Source: a virus. From it: a stretch of 64,000 nt of DNA. Position 1 is the first letter of the stretch, and each line of letters starts with the position of its first letter. Shown piece after piece: positions 2,806-61,765 of this stretch. Position numbers and translations under genes: made by a program. The notes beneath the pieces are model-generated. The model worked only from the letters and a program-made list of their open reading frames with translations. It was not told the DNA's origin and did not search any database. The stretch is from positions 1 to 64,000 of the IMG/VR virus record IMGVR_UViG_3300008107_000046; one strand, 5' to 3'.

Positions 2806-3603
2806 ATGGCTGCTCCAAAGACGGTTGCCCAATTAAAATCTAGTATTTTAAGACCAGCATTAACATCTCACTACTCCGTATTAATTACTGGTGTGCCTTC
2901 GACTGCTCAGACTTTTATAAGTCAAAATGCTCAAATATCAAGCACACCTGTAGAATATCTTGAATTGTCTTGCTGTGAGGCATCATTACCTGGATCATCT
3001 TTAGCAACACTGGATATTATGAATGATCATACAGGTGTTAATGAAAAACATGCTTATAGAAGATTATATGATGACAGAGCAGACTTTACATTTTATGTTG
3101 ATCATGATTATGTTCCAATAAGATTTTTTGAAGCATGGATGAGATATATTACTACTGAGCAAAGATCCAAAGGAATTGCTAATAGAACATTTACTTCAAG
3201 ACCAACTTGGGTAGATAATTATGCTACCGATCAAATAACCATTGAAAAATTTGAGCGCGATTATAATTCTAGTTTAACATATAAATTTATTAAGGCATTT
3301 CCTGTAAGTATAAATTCTATTCCCGTATCTTACGAATCATCTAATTTATTAAAAGTTACTGTTTCATTTGTTTATAGTAGATATTATATTGATAACTTTA
3401 CTGGAGCACCAGCACAACCTAGCATACAGCAACCAGCACCAGTTTCTCAACAACCAATAACTACAAATACACCATTTACTACTCAAAGAATATTAAGTGA
3501 TGAATATTATAATAATTTTGGACAAAACTCTCAGAACGCCACTAACTTCTCAGATTTTACTAACGGCACTGTAGGTGGTCCATTTGGTCAAGCAGTTGCA
3601 TAA
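2806..3603 (+). CDS. gp54: baseplate tail-tube initiator (gp54 / tube-like)
   Basis: CCEASLPGSSL, FTFYVD, AFPVSINSIPVSY, KVTVSFVY tube-fold motifs; lies between gp4 and gp26. Confidence 0.65.
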   Translation: MAAPKTVAQLKSSILRPALTSHYSVLITGVPSTAQTFISQNAQISSTPVEYLELSCCEASLPGSSLATLDIMNDHTGVNEKHAYRRLYDDRADFTFYVDHDYVPIRFFEAWMRYITTEQRSKGIANRTFTSRPTWVDNYATDQITIEKFERDYNSSLTYKFIKAFPVSINSIPVSYESSNLLKVTVSFVYSRYYIDNFTGAPAQPSIQQPAPVSQQPITTNTPFTTQRILSDEYYNNFGQNSQNATNFSDFTNGTVGGPFGQAVA

Positions 3604-4542: not shown

Positions 4543-6988
4543 ACCAAAGTTTATCGATAAATTTTGGCCAGTATCTACAATAGTATCAAGTAGAACTGGA
4601 CAATATAAAAGAATACTTGCTCAACGAATGGAGAGGAACAAGTATTTAATCGAGAATACTTATGGTGTAAAGGCAGATAGAGTTGTAGATACATTCATCA
4701 AAGCATATTTGGCGTCGGATAAAGATTATCCTGCGCCAATTGAAATTGTTCAAAATCCAAGGTCAGAAAAAGATTTCGATTTATATAATCAATACATTAT
4801 ATTTTTGTGGGAATATTATGTAAGAGATAAGAGTAAGAAACCAAAACCAGGTAGAGAAAAACCACCGCCAAATATACCCAATAATCAACAACCTCCAGGT
4901 GATCCTGGGTCATTGACTTTATATGAAGGGAAGAAAGAAGAAGATTTAGTTGATGAAGAAGTTGATGAAAGAATTTTAAAACTTCTTGGATTGCAAGATG
5001 TTTTTGATATTGATTATGGAACTTATCTTACTCTACTAAAAGAGAAGATGATTTCTGCAAGGATGTCATCTACAAGTATTCCTACGGAAGAAATAGAATT
5101 AATAACTAATGAATATAAAAGAGTAAAGGGTAAGGTTGGTAGATTTAAAATAAAAGGTAAGAAAATAAATGCTGATAATATAAAGGCATCTGGTCCAATA
5201 AGAATAACTAAAGATCAATTTTTTCTTGCTGGAAAGGTATCAGTTCCAAATGTTAAATCTGAAGATCAAAAACCGACAGCAGAAACATCTGATTTAAAAA
5301 AAGATATACAAGTAATTAGATCTAGTCTTGAAAATATTGCATCTTTATTAACGGGTCAGAATAAATTATTACAAAAATCATTTGAAACTCAAAGACTACA
5401 AAGAGAAAATAAAAGAAGATCTGATAAGGAAGACAAACTAGAAACTGTAAAAGGTGCATTAAAAAATGTCGCACAAAAAGTATTAGCACCATTTCAAAGT
5501 ATATTGGATAAAATTATTAACTTTATTGTTAATATGCTTCTTGGGAGATTTTTTGTTAAGTTGATGGATTGGCTTGCTAATCCAGAAAATTTTGCTAAAG
5601 TTAAAAATATTTTTAGATTTTTAAAGGATTGGTGGCCTGCTCTTCTAGGTGCATATCTACTTTTTGGTAATGGGTTGGGTAGATTTGTTGTAAAGATCAC
5701 TGCATCTTTAATAAAATATGGATTTAAATTAACTAAAAAAGTATTACCTCAATTATTAAAATTTCTTAAAAGTCCCATTGGAATGGGATTGGGGTTATTT
5801 ACTGCTGGTGCGACAGTACCAATGCTTTTCCCACAAACTGTCAATGCCCAAGAGACTGCAATATCATCTTCTCCTGGAACTAATGAGGATAAGATTGGTA
5901 AACTGAAGCAACAGAAAGAAAATTTAAATTGGTTAGATAAACTTCAGGGGAAAGGATCTGAAATTGATGAGCAAATTCATTTCTTAGAAACTGGAAAAAC
6001 CAAGGCATATACTGGCGGTGGTTTAATTACAAACTCAAAATATAATAGTGGATTATATACACAACCAATAAAAATTAGTGATATTGGATTTGATGGTGGT
6101 GGATCAATACAAAATGATACTGGTGTAAAAGTATCTGGTGCTGGAAAGGATACTCAGTTAATTGCTGCTCAACCAGGTGAAATTGTAATTAATAAACCAA
6201 CAGTAGATGCTTTAGGTAAAAACTTTTTCTTATCTTTGAATTCTAAGTTTGGTGGATCTGGTGCCAATATACCAAAAATGTATAATGATATTCAACTTGC
6301 CGCTAAGGGTGGTCTTGTTGGTGGGTATTCTGGAGATAAAAAAGATAGTCCACCATCAGATGGAAAGAGAAAACCAACTAGTAAAGTTGCTGCAAAGTTA
6401 GCACCTTTCTCTATGAAAGATACATTCATGAATTTATCTCCGTTGAATATTGATAAAAGAACTACTATTTTTAATCAAGATTATACTAAAGATAAATCAA
6501 AATCAAAACCAAAGAATAAACAATTAACACCAATGCAACAATGGGCAAAGAATTTCCCAGAACTTGCTAAAAAAGTTAAACCAGGACAATCTGGATATGA
6601 TGAAATACAAGCAGTAATTAATCCAAAAATTGATATGTCTAATGTATTTTCTACATCATTTACTCCTTTGTTTAATAACATTATTGAAAATACTTTCAAT
6701 AATACTGTTAATGGTTTAAATTTTGGTGATCATCAAAACATTAATATTGAAGGTCCCAAAAAACCTAATTTTATACCTGCTAAACAAAATGTTTATATTC
6801 CTCCATCACCATCAGTTAATAATGCTCCTAATATAATTGCACTTCCACCGATTAGAAAAAATCAAACTTCTAATACTTCTGGTTCTAATAAAAGTATGGG
6901 AAAAGATATACCACAGTTTCCAGCGTTTCAAGATACCGCTACTAGAAAAAACAACCTACAAATTTATGGAATAATAGGGGTAGGTTAG
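4529..6988 (+). CDS. large baseplate hub / tape-measure-like structural protein
   Basis: 819 aa; coiled coil followed by hydrophobic segments; position after gp51. Confidence 0.55.
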   Translation: MASNKPKFIDKFWPVSTIVSSRTGQYKRILAQRMERNKYLIENTYGVKADRVVDTFIKAYLASDKDYPAPIEIVQNPRSEKDFDLYNQYIIFLWEYYVRDKSKKPKPGREKPPPNIPNNQQPPGDPGSLTLYEGKKEEDLVDEEVDERILKLLGLQDVFDIDYGTYLTLLKEKMISARMSSTSIPTEEIELITNEYKRVKGKVGRFKIKGKKINADNIKASGPIRITKDQFFLAGKVSVPNVKSEDQKPTAETSDLKKDIQVIRSSLENIASLLTGQNKLLQKSFETQRLQRENKRRSDKEDKLETVKGALKNVAQKVLAPFQSILDKIINFIVNMLLGRFFVKLMDWLANPENFAKVKNIFRFLKDWWPALLGAYLLFGNGLGRFVVKITASLIKYGFKLTKKVLPQLLKFLKSPIGMGLGLFTAGATVPMLFPQTVNAQETAISSSPGTNEDKIGKLKQQKENLNWLDKLQGKGSEIDEQIHFLETGKTKAYTGGGLITNSKYNSGLYTQPIKISDIGFDGGGSIQNDTGVKVSGAGKDTQLIAAQPGEIVINKPTVDALGKNFFLSLNSKFGGSGANIPKMYNDIQLAAKGGLVGGYSGDKKDSPPSDGKRKPTSKVAAKLAPFSMKDTFMNLSPLNIDKRTTIFNQDYTKDKSKSKPKNKQLTPMQQWAKNFPELAKKVKPGQSGYDEIQAVINPKIDMSNVFSTSFTPLFNNIIENTFNNTVNGLNFGDHQNINIEGPKKPNFIPAKQNVYIPPSPSVNNAPNIIALPPIRKNQTSNTSGSNKSMGKDIPQFPAFQDTATRKNNLQIYGIIGVG

Positions 6989-58506: not shown

Positions 58507-58566
58507 GTGTACCAGTTGCTTAACTGTCCACTGCCTCTTGACGGGGCATTTTTTATGCGTTATATT
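58507..58566 (+). promoter_or_regulatory. palindromic box + hairpin + promoter (TTGACG-17-TATATT)
   Basis: GTGTACCAGTTGCTTAACTGTCCAC; TGCCTC-TTGAC-GGGGCA plus T run. Confidence 0.7.
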
Positions 58567-58891: not shown

Positions 58892-59017
58892 ATGATTACA
58901 ACTATTATGGCAGCGTTTGCCTTTGGTTATTGTGTTGCTGATATTGTTATCTGCATCAATAACAAAAAACGCGACAAAGAACTTTTGGAACAAATTCTTG
59001 GAGAATCTAAACGATGA
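58892..59017 (+). CDS. 41-aa membrane-anchored peptide
   Basis: Manual ORF MITTIMAAFAFGYCVADIVICINNKKR; ATGA-coupled to next gene. Confidence 0.5.
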   Translation: MITTIMAAFAFGYCVADIVICINNKKRDKELLEQILGESKR

Positions 59018-59202
59018 AAACTTCTACTGCTCTTGGTGCTGCCTTTTTTCTAATTGTTCTTGCAACTGCTGGTCTCTTCTTTGAAGCATGGTTGCTTGGT
59101 CTCATTCTGTCTTGGTTTGGTGTATCCCTTTCCTTCTGGCAGAACTTTGCTATCATCTTCCTTGCTAACGCTATCTTTAAAACTAACGTATCTTCTAAAT
59201 GA
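59014..59202 (+). CDS. small 2-TM membrane protein
   Basis: Almost entirely hydrophobic. Confidence 0.6.
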   Translation: MKTSTALGAAFFLIVLATAGLFFEAWLLGLILSWFGVSLSFWQNFAIIFLANAIFKTNVSSK

Positions 59203-59390
59203 AAAACGGATACACTCTCGTTGAACTGATGATTGTTGTTGCTATTGCTGGTATTGGATGTGCTATTTTGTTTGGCATTGCTACTGGCAATTCTGTAGTC
59301 CCAGGAAAACAAGCGTGTTTGAATGCTGGTGGAAAATGGTCTGAAGGTATTCAATACGGTCGTATTACTCAACTTTGTACTTATAATTGA
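59199..59390 (+). CDS. short type IV prepilin-like protein
   Basis: MKNG|YTLVELMIVVAIAGI: class III signal peptide with G-1, aromatic +1, E+5; C-terminal Cys pair. Confidence 0.75.
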   Translation: MKNGYTLVELMIVVAIAGIGCAILFGIATGNSVVPGKQACLNAGGKWSEGIQYGRITQLCTYN

Positions 59391-59391
59391 T

Positions 59392-59709
59392 ATGAAACCT
59401 ATTCTTGCTATTGTCGGCGGTGTCGTTGGTGTTGGTGCCCTTGCCTGGGGCCTTACCTATCACGAACTGATTTTTACGTCATTCTTTGCTCCTAAGTTTG
59501 AGAATGTTCGTAGGAACACTTTTGAACAGTCAAAGTCCTTCCGAACTGGTGCTGTTCAAGAACTGCAAAATATGCAGTTTGAATACATCAAAGCATCACC
59601 TGAACATAAGAAAGCACTTGCAGATATTATTCGGCATCGTGCTGTAGAAGTTCCTGCCGATGCTATGCCTTCTGACCTCCAATCCTTTATCTCTAATCTT
59701 CCTCAATGA
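59392..59709 (+). CDS. membrane-anchored phage protein
   Basis: N-terminal TM; FFAPKFENVRRNTFEQSKS; start reassigned. Confidence 0.6.
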   Translation: MKPILAIVGGVVGVGALAWGLTYHELIFTSFFAPKFENVRRNTFEQSKSFRTGAVQELQNMQFEYIKASPEHKKALADIIRHRAVEVPADAMPSDLQSFISNLPQ

Positions 59710-60191
59710 AAACCATCGTTTCTGTTGCTGCACTTGCTGTTCTTGGTCTTACTCTGACTGGTTGTGAAATTGAACAAAATTCTGATGATACTCAGCGTTC
59801 CCAACAAGAGCGAATTCTGAAGGAAGGTACTGCTCAAAGTGGTATGCCTGCCATCAAGAACTTCCGTGAACGTAAGTTGCTGAAGCAGATTATTGAAATG
59901 CGTGACCAAGATGGTCTGGTGACTTATACTTATACTGTTCCTGAAACTACTGGTCGTCCTGTGTTTCTGTGTAATTCTATTGGGTATGGTCTTCCTGCTG
60001 CCACTCAATACACTAATCCAGAGAAGTATGAATACACTGGCACAACTCTTCCACAGGCAGATCCTAATGGTCTCTTCTCTCCTGACAGTGCCGAAGGTAC
60101 TTGGGTGATGTGTTCTGATCCTGATGGTAGTGGCAAAACCCGTCCTGTTTATGTTGAACCTCGCATTATTGTTTCACCTTTCAAACTTTGA
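59706..60191 (+). CDS. lipoprotein
   Basis: Signal peptide with lipobox LTGC; GYGLPAATQYTNP...LPQADPNGLF. Confidence 0.7.
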   Translation: MKTIVSVAALAVLGLTLTGCEIEQNSDDTQRSQQERILKEGTAQSGMPAIKNFRERKLLKQIIEMRDQDGLVTYTYTVPETTGRPVFLCNSIGYGLPAATQYTNPEKYEYTGTTLPQADPNGLFSPDSAEGTWVMCSDPDGSGKTRPVYVEPRIIVSPFKL

Positions 60192-60616
60192 TTATGACTA
60201 AAGTAGTATATAACGCCAAATACGGTGGGTTCAGTCTGTCCCGTGAGGCGTGTCAACGTTACTGGGAACTTAAAGGTCAACAAGTTTGGATTGAAGATGG
60301 TGACTTCCTGGATATGTTCACTGTTTGGTTGGTTCCGCCTGAAGAACGAGTAGTCAAATCAGAAAACTGGTATGATATTCCTACAGATGAACGTATTGCT
60401 TACAACCGAAAGTATAACGAACAAACTTGGTATGACCGTAATGTTTCCCGTCACGACCCTATTCTTGTTCAAGTTGTAGAAGAACTGGGTGAGAAAGCAG
60501 ACGGAATGTGTGCTAAACTTGCTATTGCTGAGGTCTCTGGTCCTTATCGTATTGATGAATATGATGGATATGAGACTGTCAAACAACCTGATGGTTACGA
60601 TTGGATTACTCCCTGA
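60188..60616 (+). CDS. conserved phage hypothetical protein
   Basis: KVVYNAKYGGFSLS...RHDPILVQVVEELG...YRIDEYDGYE. Confidence 0.7.
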   Translation: MIMTKVVYNAKYGGFSLSREACQRYWELKGQQVWIEDGDFLDMFTVWLVPPEERVVKSENWYDIPTDERIAYNRKYNEQTWYDRNVSRHDPILVQVVEELGEKADGMCAKLAIAEVSGPYRIDEYDGYETVKQPDGYDWITP

Positions 60617-60635
60617 ACTTTATTTGAGGTAAATT

Positions 60636-61043
60636 ATGACTCGTTACAATGACCCCAACACCCCTGTTGCTATCGTATTTGGTGCTGGATTTGTAGTTGT
60701 TGTTGCTCTACTATTCTTTGGTGGGCCACTCTACAATGTTTGGCAACAATCTCTTGCTGGTAAAGCAGAACTACAGAAGGCAGAGTATACTCGTCAGGTG
60801 GCAGTTCTTGAAGCACAAGCAAAGAAAGATAGTGCTCAACAACTTGCTGATGCTGAAATCATTCGTGCTACTGGTGTTGCTAAAGCAAACCAAATCATCG
60901 GTGATAGTCTGAAAGACAATCGTGAGTACCTCCAGTATCTGTATATCACTGGTCTTGAAGATGGTAGCAAGAATGGTAACGTGACCATCTATGTTCCTAC
61001 TGAAGGTGGTATGCCCGTTCCTACTCTTCAAATGAACAAATGA
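60636..61043 (+). CDS. membrane protein with SPFH/band-7-like coiled coil
   Basis: TM then AEAQ-type heptads: AEIIRATGVAKANQIIGDSL...YLQYL..IYVPTE. Confidence 0.6.
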   Translation: MTRYNDPNTPVAIVFGAGFVVVVALLFFGGPLYNVWQQSLAGKAELQKAEYTRQVAVLEAQAKKDSAQQLADAEIIRATGVAKANQIIGDSLKDNREYLQYLYITGLEDGSKNGNVTIYVPTEGGMPVPTLQMNK

Positions 61044-61710: not shown

Positions 61711-61765
61711 CAGTTTAGATAGTGGCACACTTTGGGTTCTCAGTGCCCTGAGAACCCTTTATAAT
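61707..61765 (+). promoter_or_regulatory. palindromic box + hairpin + TATAAT promoter
   Basis: GTGACAGTTTAGATAGTGGCACAC; GGGTTCTCAG-TGCC-CTGAGAACCC; TATAAT at 61760. Confidence 0.7.

Follow-up and report, generated by a model that had tools for sequence, protein, structure and literature searches.

What would a T4-like cyanophage do with a pilin that stops shortly after its first helix? The question is raised by a 63-codon gene, here called the mini-pilin gene, in a stretch of viral DNA of 64,000 nucleotides (the window; positions 1 to 64,000 of IMG/VR record IMGVR_UViG_3300008107_000046). The N-terminus of the encoded protein reads MKNG|YTLVE, hydrophobic sequence extends up to residue 29, and two cysteines follow at positions 40 and 60. 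The open reading frame, basic leader, Gly-1, Glu+5, hydrophobic helix and Cys pair from which a truncated type IV pilin had been proposed (the original prediction) are all present in the sequence, and the start codon overlaps the stop of the upstream two-TM gene in an ATGA (59199-59202), as that prediction had described. The HMM check that it had suggested gave 30.5 bits (E 2.4e-7) against Pfam N_methyl (PF07963), for which the curated gathering cut-off is 21.2 bits; the protein also scored 24.9 bits against TIGR02532, above the cut-off of 16.3. Its mature length of 59 aa is arithmetic for a putative cut behind Gly4. When the 74.7-kb viral record (about 34% complete by CheckV) was scanned in all six frames over its full length, this gene gave the single N_methyl match, and neither Peptidase_A24 nor a T2SSE (PilB/GspE-type) ATPase was found, which agrees with the earlier statement that no further pilus genes accompany it. 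Judged by these profile matches, the prepilin-type signal of the mini-pilin is real.

A search of 5.8 billion proteins returned 126 homologues, all of 52-79 aa and many of them labelled merely 'prepilin-type N-terminal cleavage/methylation domain-containing protein'. Conservation was counted in an alignment of 117 of these 126. The hallmarks of a pilin helix are retained at Gly-1 (111/117), Phe/Tyr+1 (115/117), Thr+2 (116/117), Glu+5 (114/117), Leu+6 (110/117), Ile+8 (111/117) and Gly+14 (96/117); most other helix positions drift, and the positions of low entropy are exactly the pilin hallmarks. A lack of conservation of Gly-1 and Glu+5 among phage homologues had been named as a result that would refute the original prediction; both residues are kept at these frequencies, so that the prediction is not refuted by this test. 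The leaders of the family are mostly 4-8 residues long and contain Lys. From Cys40 to the end, the region that we call the head, almost every position is kept in at least 115 of the 117 homologues, and both Cys are kept in all of them. Selection was estimated from 22 distinct coding sequences out of related loci. The overall dN/dS ratio is 0.35; by region it falls from 0.66 (signal and helix) to 0.39 (linker) and 0.09 (head), with dS similar along the gene (about 0.55-0.72; 0.67 in the head). The strongest selection acts on the Cys-loop head, not on the signal. The gene is translated and evolves under purifying selection, and a ratio this low at such a dS means that the surface of the head is constrained.

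In the AF2 model computed with the family alignment (mean pLDDT 77.9), residues 7-29 form a long helix (block pLDDT up to 93), which is followed by a linker of low confidence, by a second, short helix (residues 37-42) and by a beta-hairpin (residues 46-52/55-61). The two Cys are placed in the short helix and in the second strand, positions from which they could staple the predicted head. Thirty-four residues follow the long helix, and the model lacks a globular pilin body, i.e. alpha1-C or the pilin beta-sheet. Because only a six-residue helix and one beta-hairpin are predicted after alpha1-N, the protein is best described as a pilin-like stub and not as a canonical pilin, and its fit into a filament is uncertain since the helix ends at residue 29 with neither alpha1-C nor a beta-sheet body behind it. 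Foldseek against the PDB returned nothing at E <= 0.001, VIA-align over 48,161 chains reached a best Z of 3.2 through long helices only, and BFVD gave nothing significant, its top row (E 0.12) pointing to an Aeromonas phage 31 protein. The ESM Atlas returned solely the viral cluster of the mini-pilin itself.

With the family profile, the PDB sequences matched were pilin N-termini only. The best match was Geobacter PilA-N (9egp, E 1.6e-5; also 7tgg and 2m7g), over residues 2-26 only. PilA-N ('Geopilin domain 1', 61 aa mature) is a naturally truncated pilin of the same size as the mini-pilin; it is cellular and pairs with PilA-C, whereas the phage mini-pilin has no conserved partner gene. A search of 1.84 billion representative proteins with just the head gave 12 matches, all of them short members or recombinants of the cyanophage family bar one spurious repeat protein, and a search of the PDB sequences gave none at E <= 10. 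Since the head thus finds its own family only, and nothing in the PDB, it is a phage-only invention on a pilin N-terminus.

Natural variants separate the head from the signal. Arg replaces Gly-1 in sequences of two distinct backgrounds, and Lys at +5 recurs on several contigs of another group, in each case with the head intact; the exceptions at -1, confined to few lineages, are Arg, Gln or Glu. In P0120 and P0127 the head is kept behind an N-terminus like that of the 105-aa neighbour, in P0121 the C-terminus of a lipoprotein is joined to the head, and in L037 (509-634) the start resembles that of the two-TM neighbour. The P0121 fusion is the single one of its kind, and the search for longer relatives of the mini-pilin found none beyond it. 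The recombinants P0132 and P0133 lack the first Cys and are clearly broken. Each anchor-swapped or hallmark-loss form is rare, and the anchor-swapped ones are singletons or rare. Together, these forms show that a canonical class III signal is not required for the head to persist, which is the strongest point for the rival reading discussed below. Because the head stays intact in them, competence for processing or assembly may be dispensable. The in-frame recombinants tie the head to the lipoprotein or to the N-terminus of the 105-aa TM or of the two-TM protein, and some delete the first Cys; judging from these forms (P0120, P0121, P0127, L037, P0132 and P0133), short deletions evidently rearrange the genes of this block.

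The family was found in 40 IMG/VR viral loci, i.e. in viral or metagenomic DNA only. A pattern scan of 185,579 prokaryote species genomes (one genome each) revealed no relative, and tblastn with the mini-pilin protein gave no match at E <= 1 in 50,697 isolate phage records; in a control with the Aeromonas protein described below, tblastn found such heads despite the masked hydrophobic N-terminus. Three carrier genomes are complete (225, 249 and 258 kb). Each contains exactly one N_methyl gene together with psbA, and Peptidase_A24 and T2SSE are absent from all three. As these complete genomes have no Peptidase_A24, their phages, which are cyanophages, would have to use a host peptidase, and dependence on host PilD is plausible.

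Of the isolate phages, S-SRM01 (Kyanoviridae), which infects freshwater Synechococcus, and S-PM2 are nearest to the window, and from the kinship to T4-like cyanomyoviruses we infer a lytic lifestyle of the carrier. In S-SRM01 the flanking genes follow one another as in the window, but the mini-pilin is missing, and so is any N_methyl motif genome-wide; the mini-pilin is likewise absent from S-CRM01, Syn9, P-SSM2 and S-PM2. When the 80 IMG/VR loci nearest to the 135-aa gene of the window were inspected, the mini-pilin was present within 4 kb in just 8 of them. Taken with S-SRM01, which lacks the gene, this identifies the mini-pilin as accessory. The window stretch was found in freshwater and lake metagenomes from at least ten studies. 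Six runs labelled 'fungus metagenome' (X6-X8 and X11-X13) share 50-67% of the words of the stretch, and the label probably hides aquatic samples. In sum, uncultured freshwater T4-like cyanophages carry the mini-pilin gene as a genuine accessory gene, and it encodes a minimal prepilin: the leader, an alpha1-N helix of the canonical type IVa pilin kind, a short linker and a disulfide-loop head of 24 residues. That it might instead be a chance open reading frame or a decaying, functionless remnant is suggested by its very short length and by its absence from all cultured cyanophages checked. This idea deserves next to no credence, as the selection analysis already refutes it: the frame is conserved in about 120 homologues, dN/dS lies far below 1 at saturating dS both overall and, above all, in the head, and the gene is carried by the three complete genomes of 225-258 kb and by the metagenomes mentioned above.

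The neighbours are generic small envelope proteins, with no pilus gene nearby according to Pfam and PHROG (Table 1). About half of the 40 related loci have the two-TM gene immediately upstream, and S-SRM01, which is without the mini-pilin, has it too; on the other side, the next gene begins one base past the mini-pilin stop. The placement varies among loci. The mini-pilin follows either the two-TM or the lipoprotein gene and precedes the 105-aa, 142-aa or 135-aa gene, the position of the 105-aa and lipoprotein genes relative to it differs, and no neighbour is fixed as a partner across the related loci. The 135-aa gene stands directly after the mini-pilin in many loci, and phrog_200, which its product matches in part, is the profile of SPFH lipoproteins. 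In the 258-kb cyanophage (L031), the mini-pilin gene is overlapped on both sides by small two-TM genes, and a 270-aa Band_7 protein (5381-6193) is encoded two genes downstream.

Proteins of the SPFH/Band_7-type phrog_200 occur near a mini-pilin in Aeromonas phage 31 (ORF098c, L055:2120-3043), in L031 (5381-6193) and in the window (60636-61043, the C-terminal-like 135-aa protein). The link is not universal: the Aeh1 ORFs 040c and 064c are far apart in numbering, and S-SRM01 and S-PM2 have an SPFH-like gene without a mini-pilin. In S-SRM01, a 275-nt 'intergenic' gap (L047; record 72351-72625) contains two unannotated genes, which encode a 63-aa homologue of the two-TM protein (L047:2730-2921) and a 28-aa homologue of a 41-aa TM protein (2918-3004).

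Table 1 Positions in the window of the mini-pilin gene, its parts and its surroundings
Feature	Position	Strand	Basis or remark
Hairpin overlapping a sigma-70-like promoter (TTGACG, 17 nt, TATATT)	58532..58566	+	5' of the gene block; consensus match only
62-aa two-TM protein, phrog_4743	59014..59202	+	Upstream; ATGA overlap with the mini-pilin
Mini-pilin gene, 63 codons + stop	59199..59390	+	ORF list; N_methyl and TIGR02532 above cut-off; ~120 homologues; dN/dS 0.35
Basic leader MKNG ending in Gly-1, putative prepilin-peptidase cut site	59199..59210	+	Sequence; Gly in 111/117
Pilin alpha1-N-like hydrophobic helix, residues 5-29, with Tyr+1, Thr+2, Glu+5, Gly+14	59211..59285	+	AF2; conservation; PDB profile matches
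Linker, residues 30-39, with conserved Gly30, Pro35, Lys37, Gln38	59286..59315	+	Per-column conservation; dN/dS 0.39
Near-invariant Cys-loop head, residues 40-63, Cys40 to Cys60, core GGKWSEGIQYGR	59316..59387	+	Conservation; dN/dS; AF2
105-aa TM-anchored protein and 161-aa lipoprotein (phrog_24725)	59392..60191	+	82.8% DNA identity to S-SRM01
142-aa protein (phrog_16527) and 135-aa TM protein	60188..61043	+	135-aa protein matches the C-terminal part of phrog_200, and phrog_11227
GC-rich hairpin with T tail overlapping the next promoter-like site, likely block end	61734..61765	+	Consensus match only

A GC-rich hairpin lies over a sigma-70-like promoter at both ends of the block (58532-58566 and 61734-61765), and the hairpin at 61734 also resembles a terminator; these pairs could be the combined terminator-promoter punctuation of early units. 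Sigma-70-like sites are not more numerous in the region than in shuffled sequences. The T4 late-promoter consensus TATAAATA was not found near the mini-pilin gene. Relatives at 90-95% identity cover the mini-pilin in RNA-library contigs from four studies, e.g. in a 757-nt contig over 59205-59703. Such contigs cannot show transcription, DNA carry-over is possible, and they were not counted as evidence. One RNA-library contig (run X20) joins the 3' end of a mini-pilin relative to the 142-aa gene (59387/60189), skipping 801 nt. Because this joint reproduces the gene order of loci L013-L018, several gene arrangements co-occur in nature.

Phage-encoded pilins have a published record. N-terminal methylation motifs were tabulated by Nolan et al. 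(2006) for 44RR2.8t ORF097c and Aeh1 ORF040c (PMC1524935, Table 3). Sztanko et al. (Cell Rep 2026) showed that FimU-like minor pilins of prophages enter the pilus and block tip-binding phages (PMC12952977). In section 17 of the same paper they also reported that virulent phages of four types encode PilA-like proteins, for which they suggested either incorporation without phage-binding sites or inhibition of assembly (PMC12952977). Archaeal provirus pilins employ the host machinery (PMC12426801). Our literature search found no description of a cyanophage-encoded pilin, and a preprint on huge-phage envelope proteins does not mention pilins. The novelty originally claimed for the gene was thus overstated, since N_methyl ORFs of T4-like Aeromonas phages were tabulated in 2006 and truncated PilA-like proteins were discussed in 2026. 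Likewise, the assertion that the known phage pilus inhibitors are not pilins holds for Tip, Zip, PfsE and Aqs1 but overlooked the phage pilins already published (PMC12952977, PMC12426801, PMC1524935).

Two groups of Pseudomonas phage proteins allow a closer comparison. 'P-PilA' (six virulent phages, approximately the N-terminal 60 residues) resembles the mini-pilin in belonging to a non-temperate phage and in combining a pilin signal with alpha1-N, and the mini-pilin, at 63 aa and in a T4-like cyanomyovirus context, fits the description of a truncated PilA-like protein. Compared by published description, the two differ in the host group, which is cyanobacterial for the mini-pilin, and in its disulfide-loop head, which is found nowhere else. 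P-FimU, the prophage minor pilin of F10-like phages, is also phage-encoded and type IV pilin-like; it is used in phage-versus-phage competition and depends on the host pilus machinery (PMC12952977). Unlike P-FimU, which is of full length, functions as a minor pilin and has surface loops of high diversity, the mini-pilin of this lytic-type phage is a stub of 59 aa whose head is invariant. The mini-pilin therefore falls outside the P-FimU type, as it has no pilin body and its head is invariant, not diverse.

A further counterpart lies in Aeromonas phages. ORF097c of phage 31 is 72 aa long, with a three-residue leader, a canonical alpha1-N, a Pro linker, a Cys pair and a conserved loop; it defines phrog_11263, is present in 38 T4-like isolate records and is flanked by the genes of an SPFH/Band_7 lipoprotein (phrog_200) and of a DUF1190 membrane protein. 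ORF097c of 44RR2.8t and 31 shares with the mini-pilin the T4-like virulent myovirus, the architecture and the kind of neighbourhood, but the Aeromonas family is known from those 38 isolate records and the cyanophage family from none. The mini-pilin matches phrog_11263 weakly (E 1.9e-4, residues 3-40 only). Against the Aeromonas family, hhalign gave a probability of 97.6% with the alignment ending at the first Cys, and BLASTP gave 45% identity over 40 residues. Because the alignment ends at the first Cys, the cyanophage and Aeromonas heads are not demonstrably homologous. In Aeromonas phages AS4 (L056:1189-1644) and GomatiRiver_11 (L058:1186-1644), the annotated mini-pilin ORF is extended at its N-terminus, so that about 79 conserved aa directly precede G|FTLIEL. 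If this extension is real, a prepilin-peptidase cut would free a cytoplasmic domain plus the mini-pilin.

The best reading of these observations, which we hold tentatively, is that the mini-pilin is cut by host PilD and interferes with host pili, and the pilus-jamming decoy of the original prediction is plausible in this respect. Briefly, a sigma-70-like promoter would drive the small membrane-protein genes of the block, and the protein made from it would insert N-in/C-out in the host inner membrane and, as the phage has no prepilin peptidase, would be cut by that of the host. The cut mini-pilin would then enter the membrane pool of pilins, and alpha1-N with Glu+5 would bring it to the assembly site of the type IV pilus or of a related type II secretion-like system. 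There, a bodiless subunit with an invariant head might block or cap assembly, or bind to some conserved component of the machine in the periplasm. Phage-collecting pili would no longer be displayed by the infected cell, and the outcome would be superinfection exclusion or protection of the progeny. The processing, location, target and benefit of the mini-pilin in this scheme are what we infer. In established pilin biology, cleavage requires Gly-1 but not Glu+5, which methylation and assembly depend on, and a segment that only served as an anchor would pay a price for a buried Glu. Interference with pili is suggested because the pilin hallmarks, including the membrane-buried Glu, are retained in an otherwise drifting helix, and because the phage is without a peptidase of its own. 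The invariant head fits a conserved partner and not an arms-race surface like that of P-FimU. Furthermore, the patchy distribution of the gene fits the statement that no more than about one in four picocyanobacteria encode pili (PMC7994388). A selective reason for interference would be that marine Synechococcus cells encounter cyanophages more often when they have pili (bioRxiv 10.1101/2025.09.20.677514), and P-FimU and the truncated PilA-like proteins provide a published precedent (PMC12952977). A more specific version, which we consider unlikely as it stands, makes the head a ligand of a conserved periplasmic part of the picocyanobacterial pilus machine, delivered by the pilin signal; infected freshwater cells would lose their pili within minutes, with consequences for phage encounter, sinking and DNA uptake in lakes, and together with its SPFH-type and small TM neighbours the mini-pilin might belong to an exclusion module common to Aeromonas and cyanobacterial T4-like phages.

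The main rival, possible though doubtful in our view, is that the mini-pilin is a membrane-anchored periplasmic effector acting independently of pili, with a pilin N-terminus that was taken from a captured pilin gene and serves mainly as an N-in/C-out anchor. Example targets would be the injection/lysozyme apparatus of an incoming phage (as for T4 Imm and Sp), lysis timing or peptidoglycan. Small early or moron-type envelope proteins of two groups invite comparison: Tip, Zip, PfsE and Aqs1 are non-pilin phage inhibitors of type IV pili acting on PilB, PilZ or PilC, Imm and Sp of T4 exclude superinfecting phage at the injection step, and none of them has a class III signal. They resemble the mini-pilin in size and type, and the proposed outcome for all is that phages are kept from entering a cell that is already infected or is lysogenic. 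The distribution of constraint, with dN/dS of 0.09 in the head versus 0.66 in the signal and helix, speaks for an effector, and the head is kept where the class III signal is replaced or damaged (P0120, P0127 and P0121; the Arg-1 and Lys+5 lineages). The setting of the gene points the same way, as in both cyanophages and Aeromonas phages it is surrounded by genes of small TM proteins, of a lipoprotein and of a protein of SPFH type. However, more than 93% of the members keep Gly-1, Thr+2 and Glu+5 while the remaining helix drifts, and a plain anchor would keep neither a membrane-buried Glu nor a cleavage-site Gly. The anchor swaps are singletons or rare, and the similar recombinants P0132 and P0133, with their first Cys lost, are broken. 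The mini-pilin has no sequence or profile similarity to Imm, Sp or lysis proteins: T4 Imm, Sp, lysis (lysis-inhibition) and pilus-inhibitor families are all missing from its Pfam and PHROG matches.

Two further alternatives leave the mini-pilin within pilus biology. It might be a working subunit, at the tip or in the fibre, that alters the surface or dynamics of functional pili. Viral pilins that assemble are known by experiment, namely P-FimU in Pseudomonas prophages (PMC12952977) and the SNJ2 pilins in haloarchaea (PMC12426801), and the intact pilin hallmarks including Glu+5, as well as an invariant Cys pair that recalls the pilin D-region, agree with such a role. We regard it as quite unlikely, as just 34 residues without a pilin body follow the helix, the surfaces of P-FimU are highly diverse as receptor masking predicts whereas the mini-pilin head is invariant (PMC12952977), and functional host pili would be of little gain to a lytic T4-like phage. 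The mini-pilin could also serve solely as a decoy substrate, which through early over-production titrates PilD and leaves the host pilins and pseudopilins unprocessed. The canonical cleavage site and the lack of a phage peptidase are compatible with this, but PilD is catalytic and hard to titrate, and the invariant head and the conserved Glu+5, which cleavage does not need, would be left unexplained; titration as the sole function is very improbable.

In conclusion, the phage pilin stub is an element type already in print. New here are the first cyanophage family of such mini-pilins, a head that, by the searches above, is phage-only and nearly invariant, and natural variants whose sequences dissociate the head from the pilin signal. 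With its invariant head and its anchor-swap variants, the family is a good case in which to distinguish action of phage 'pilin stubs' on the pilus machinery from the mere reuse of a pilin anchor. Type IV pili of picocyanobacteria affect buoyancy and grazing. If a phage gene switches these pili off, infection would be linked to buoyancy, grazing and cyanophage encounter, and the mini-pilin, at 63 residues, would be a small and readily tested tool in which Gly-1, Glu+5 and both Cys are obvious sites for point mutants.
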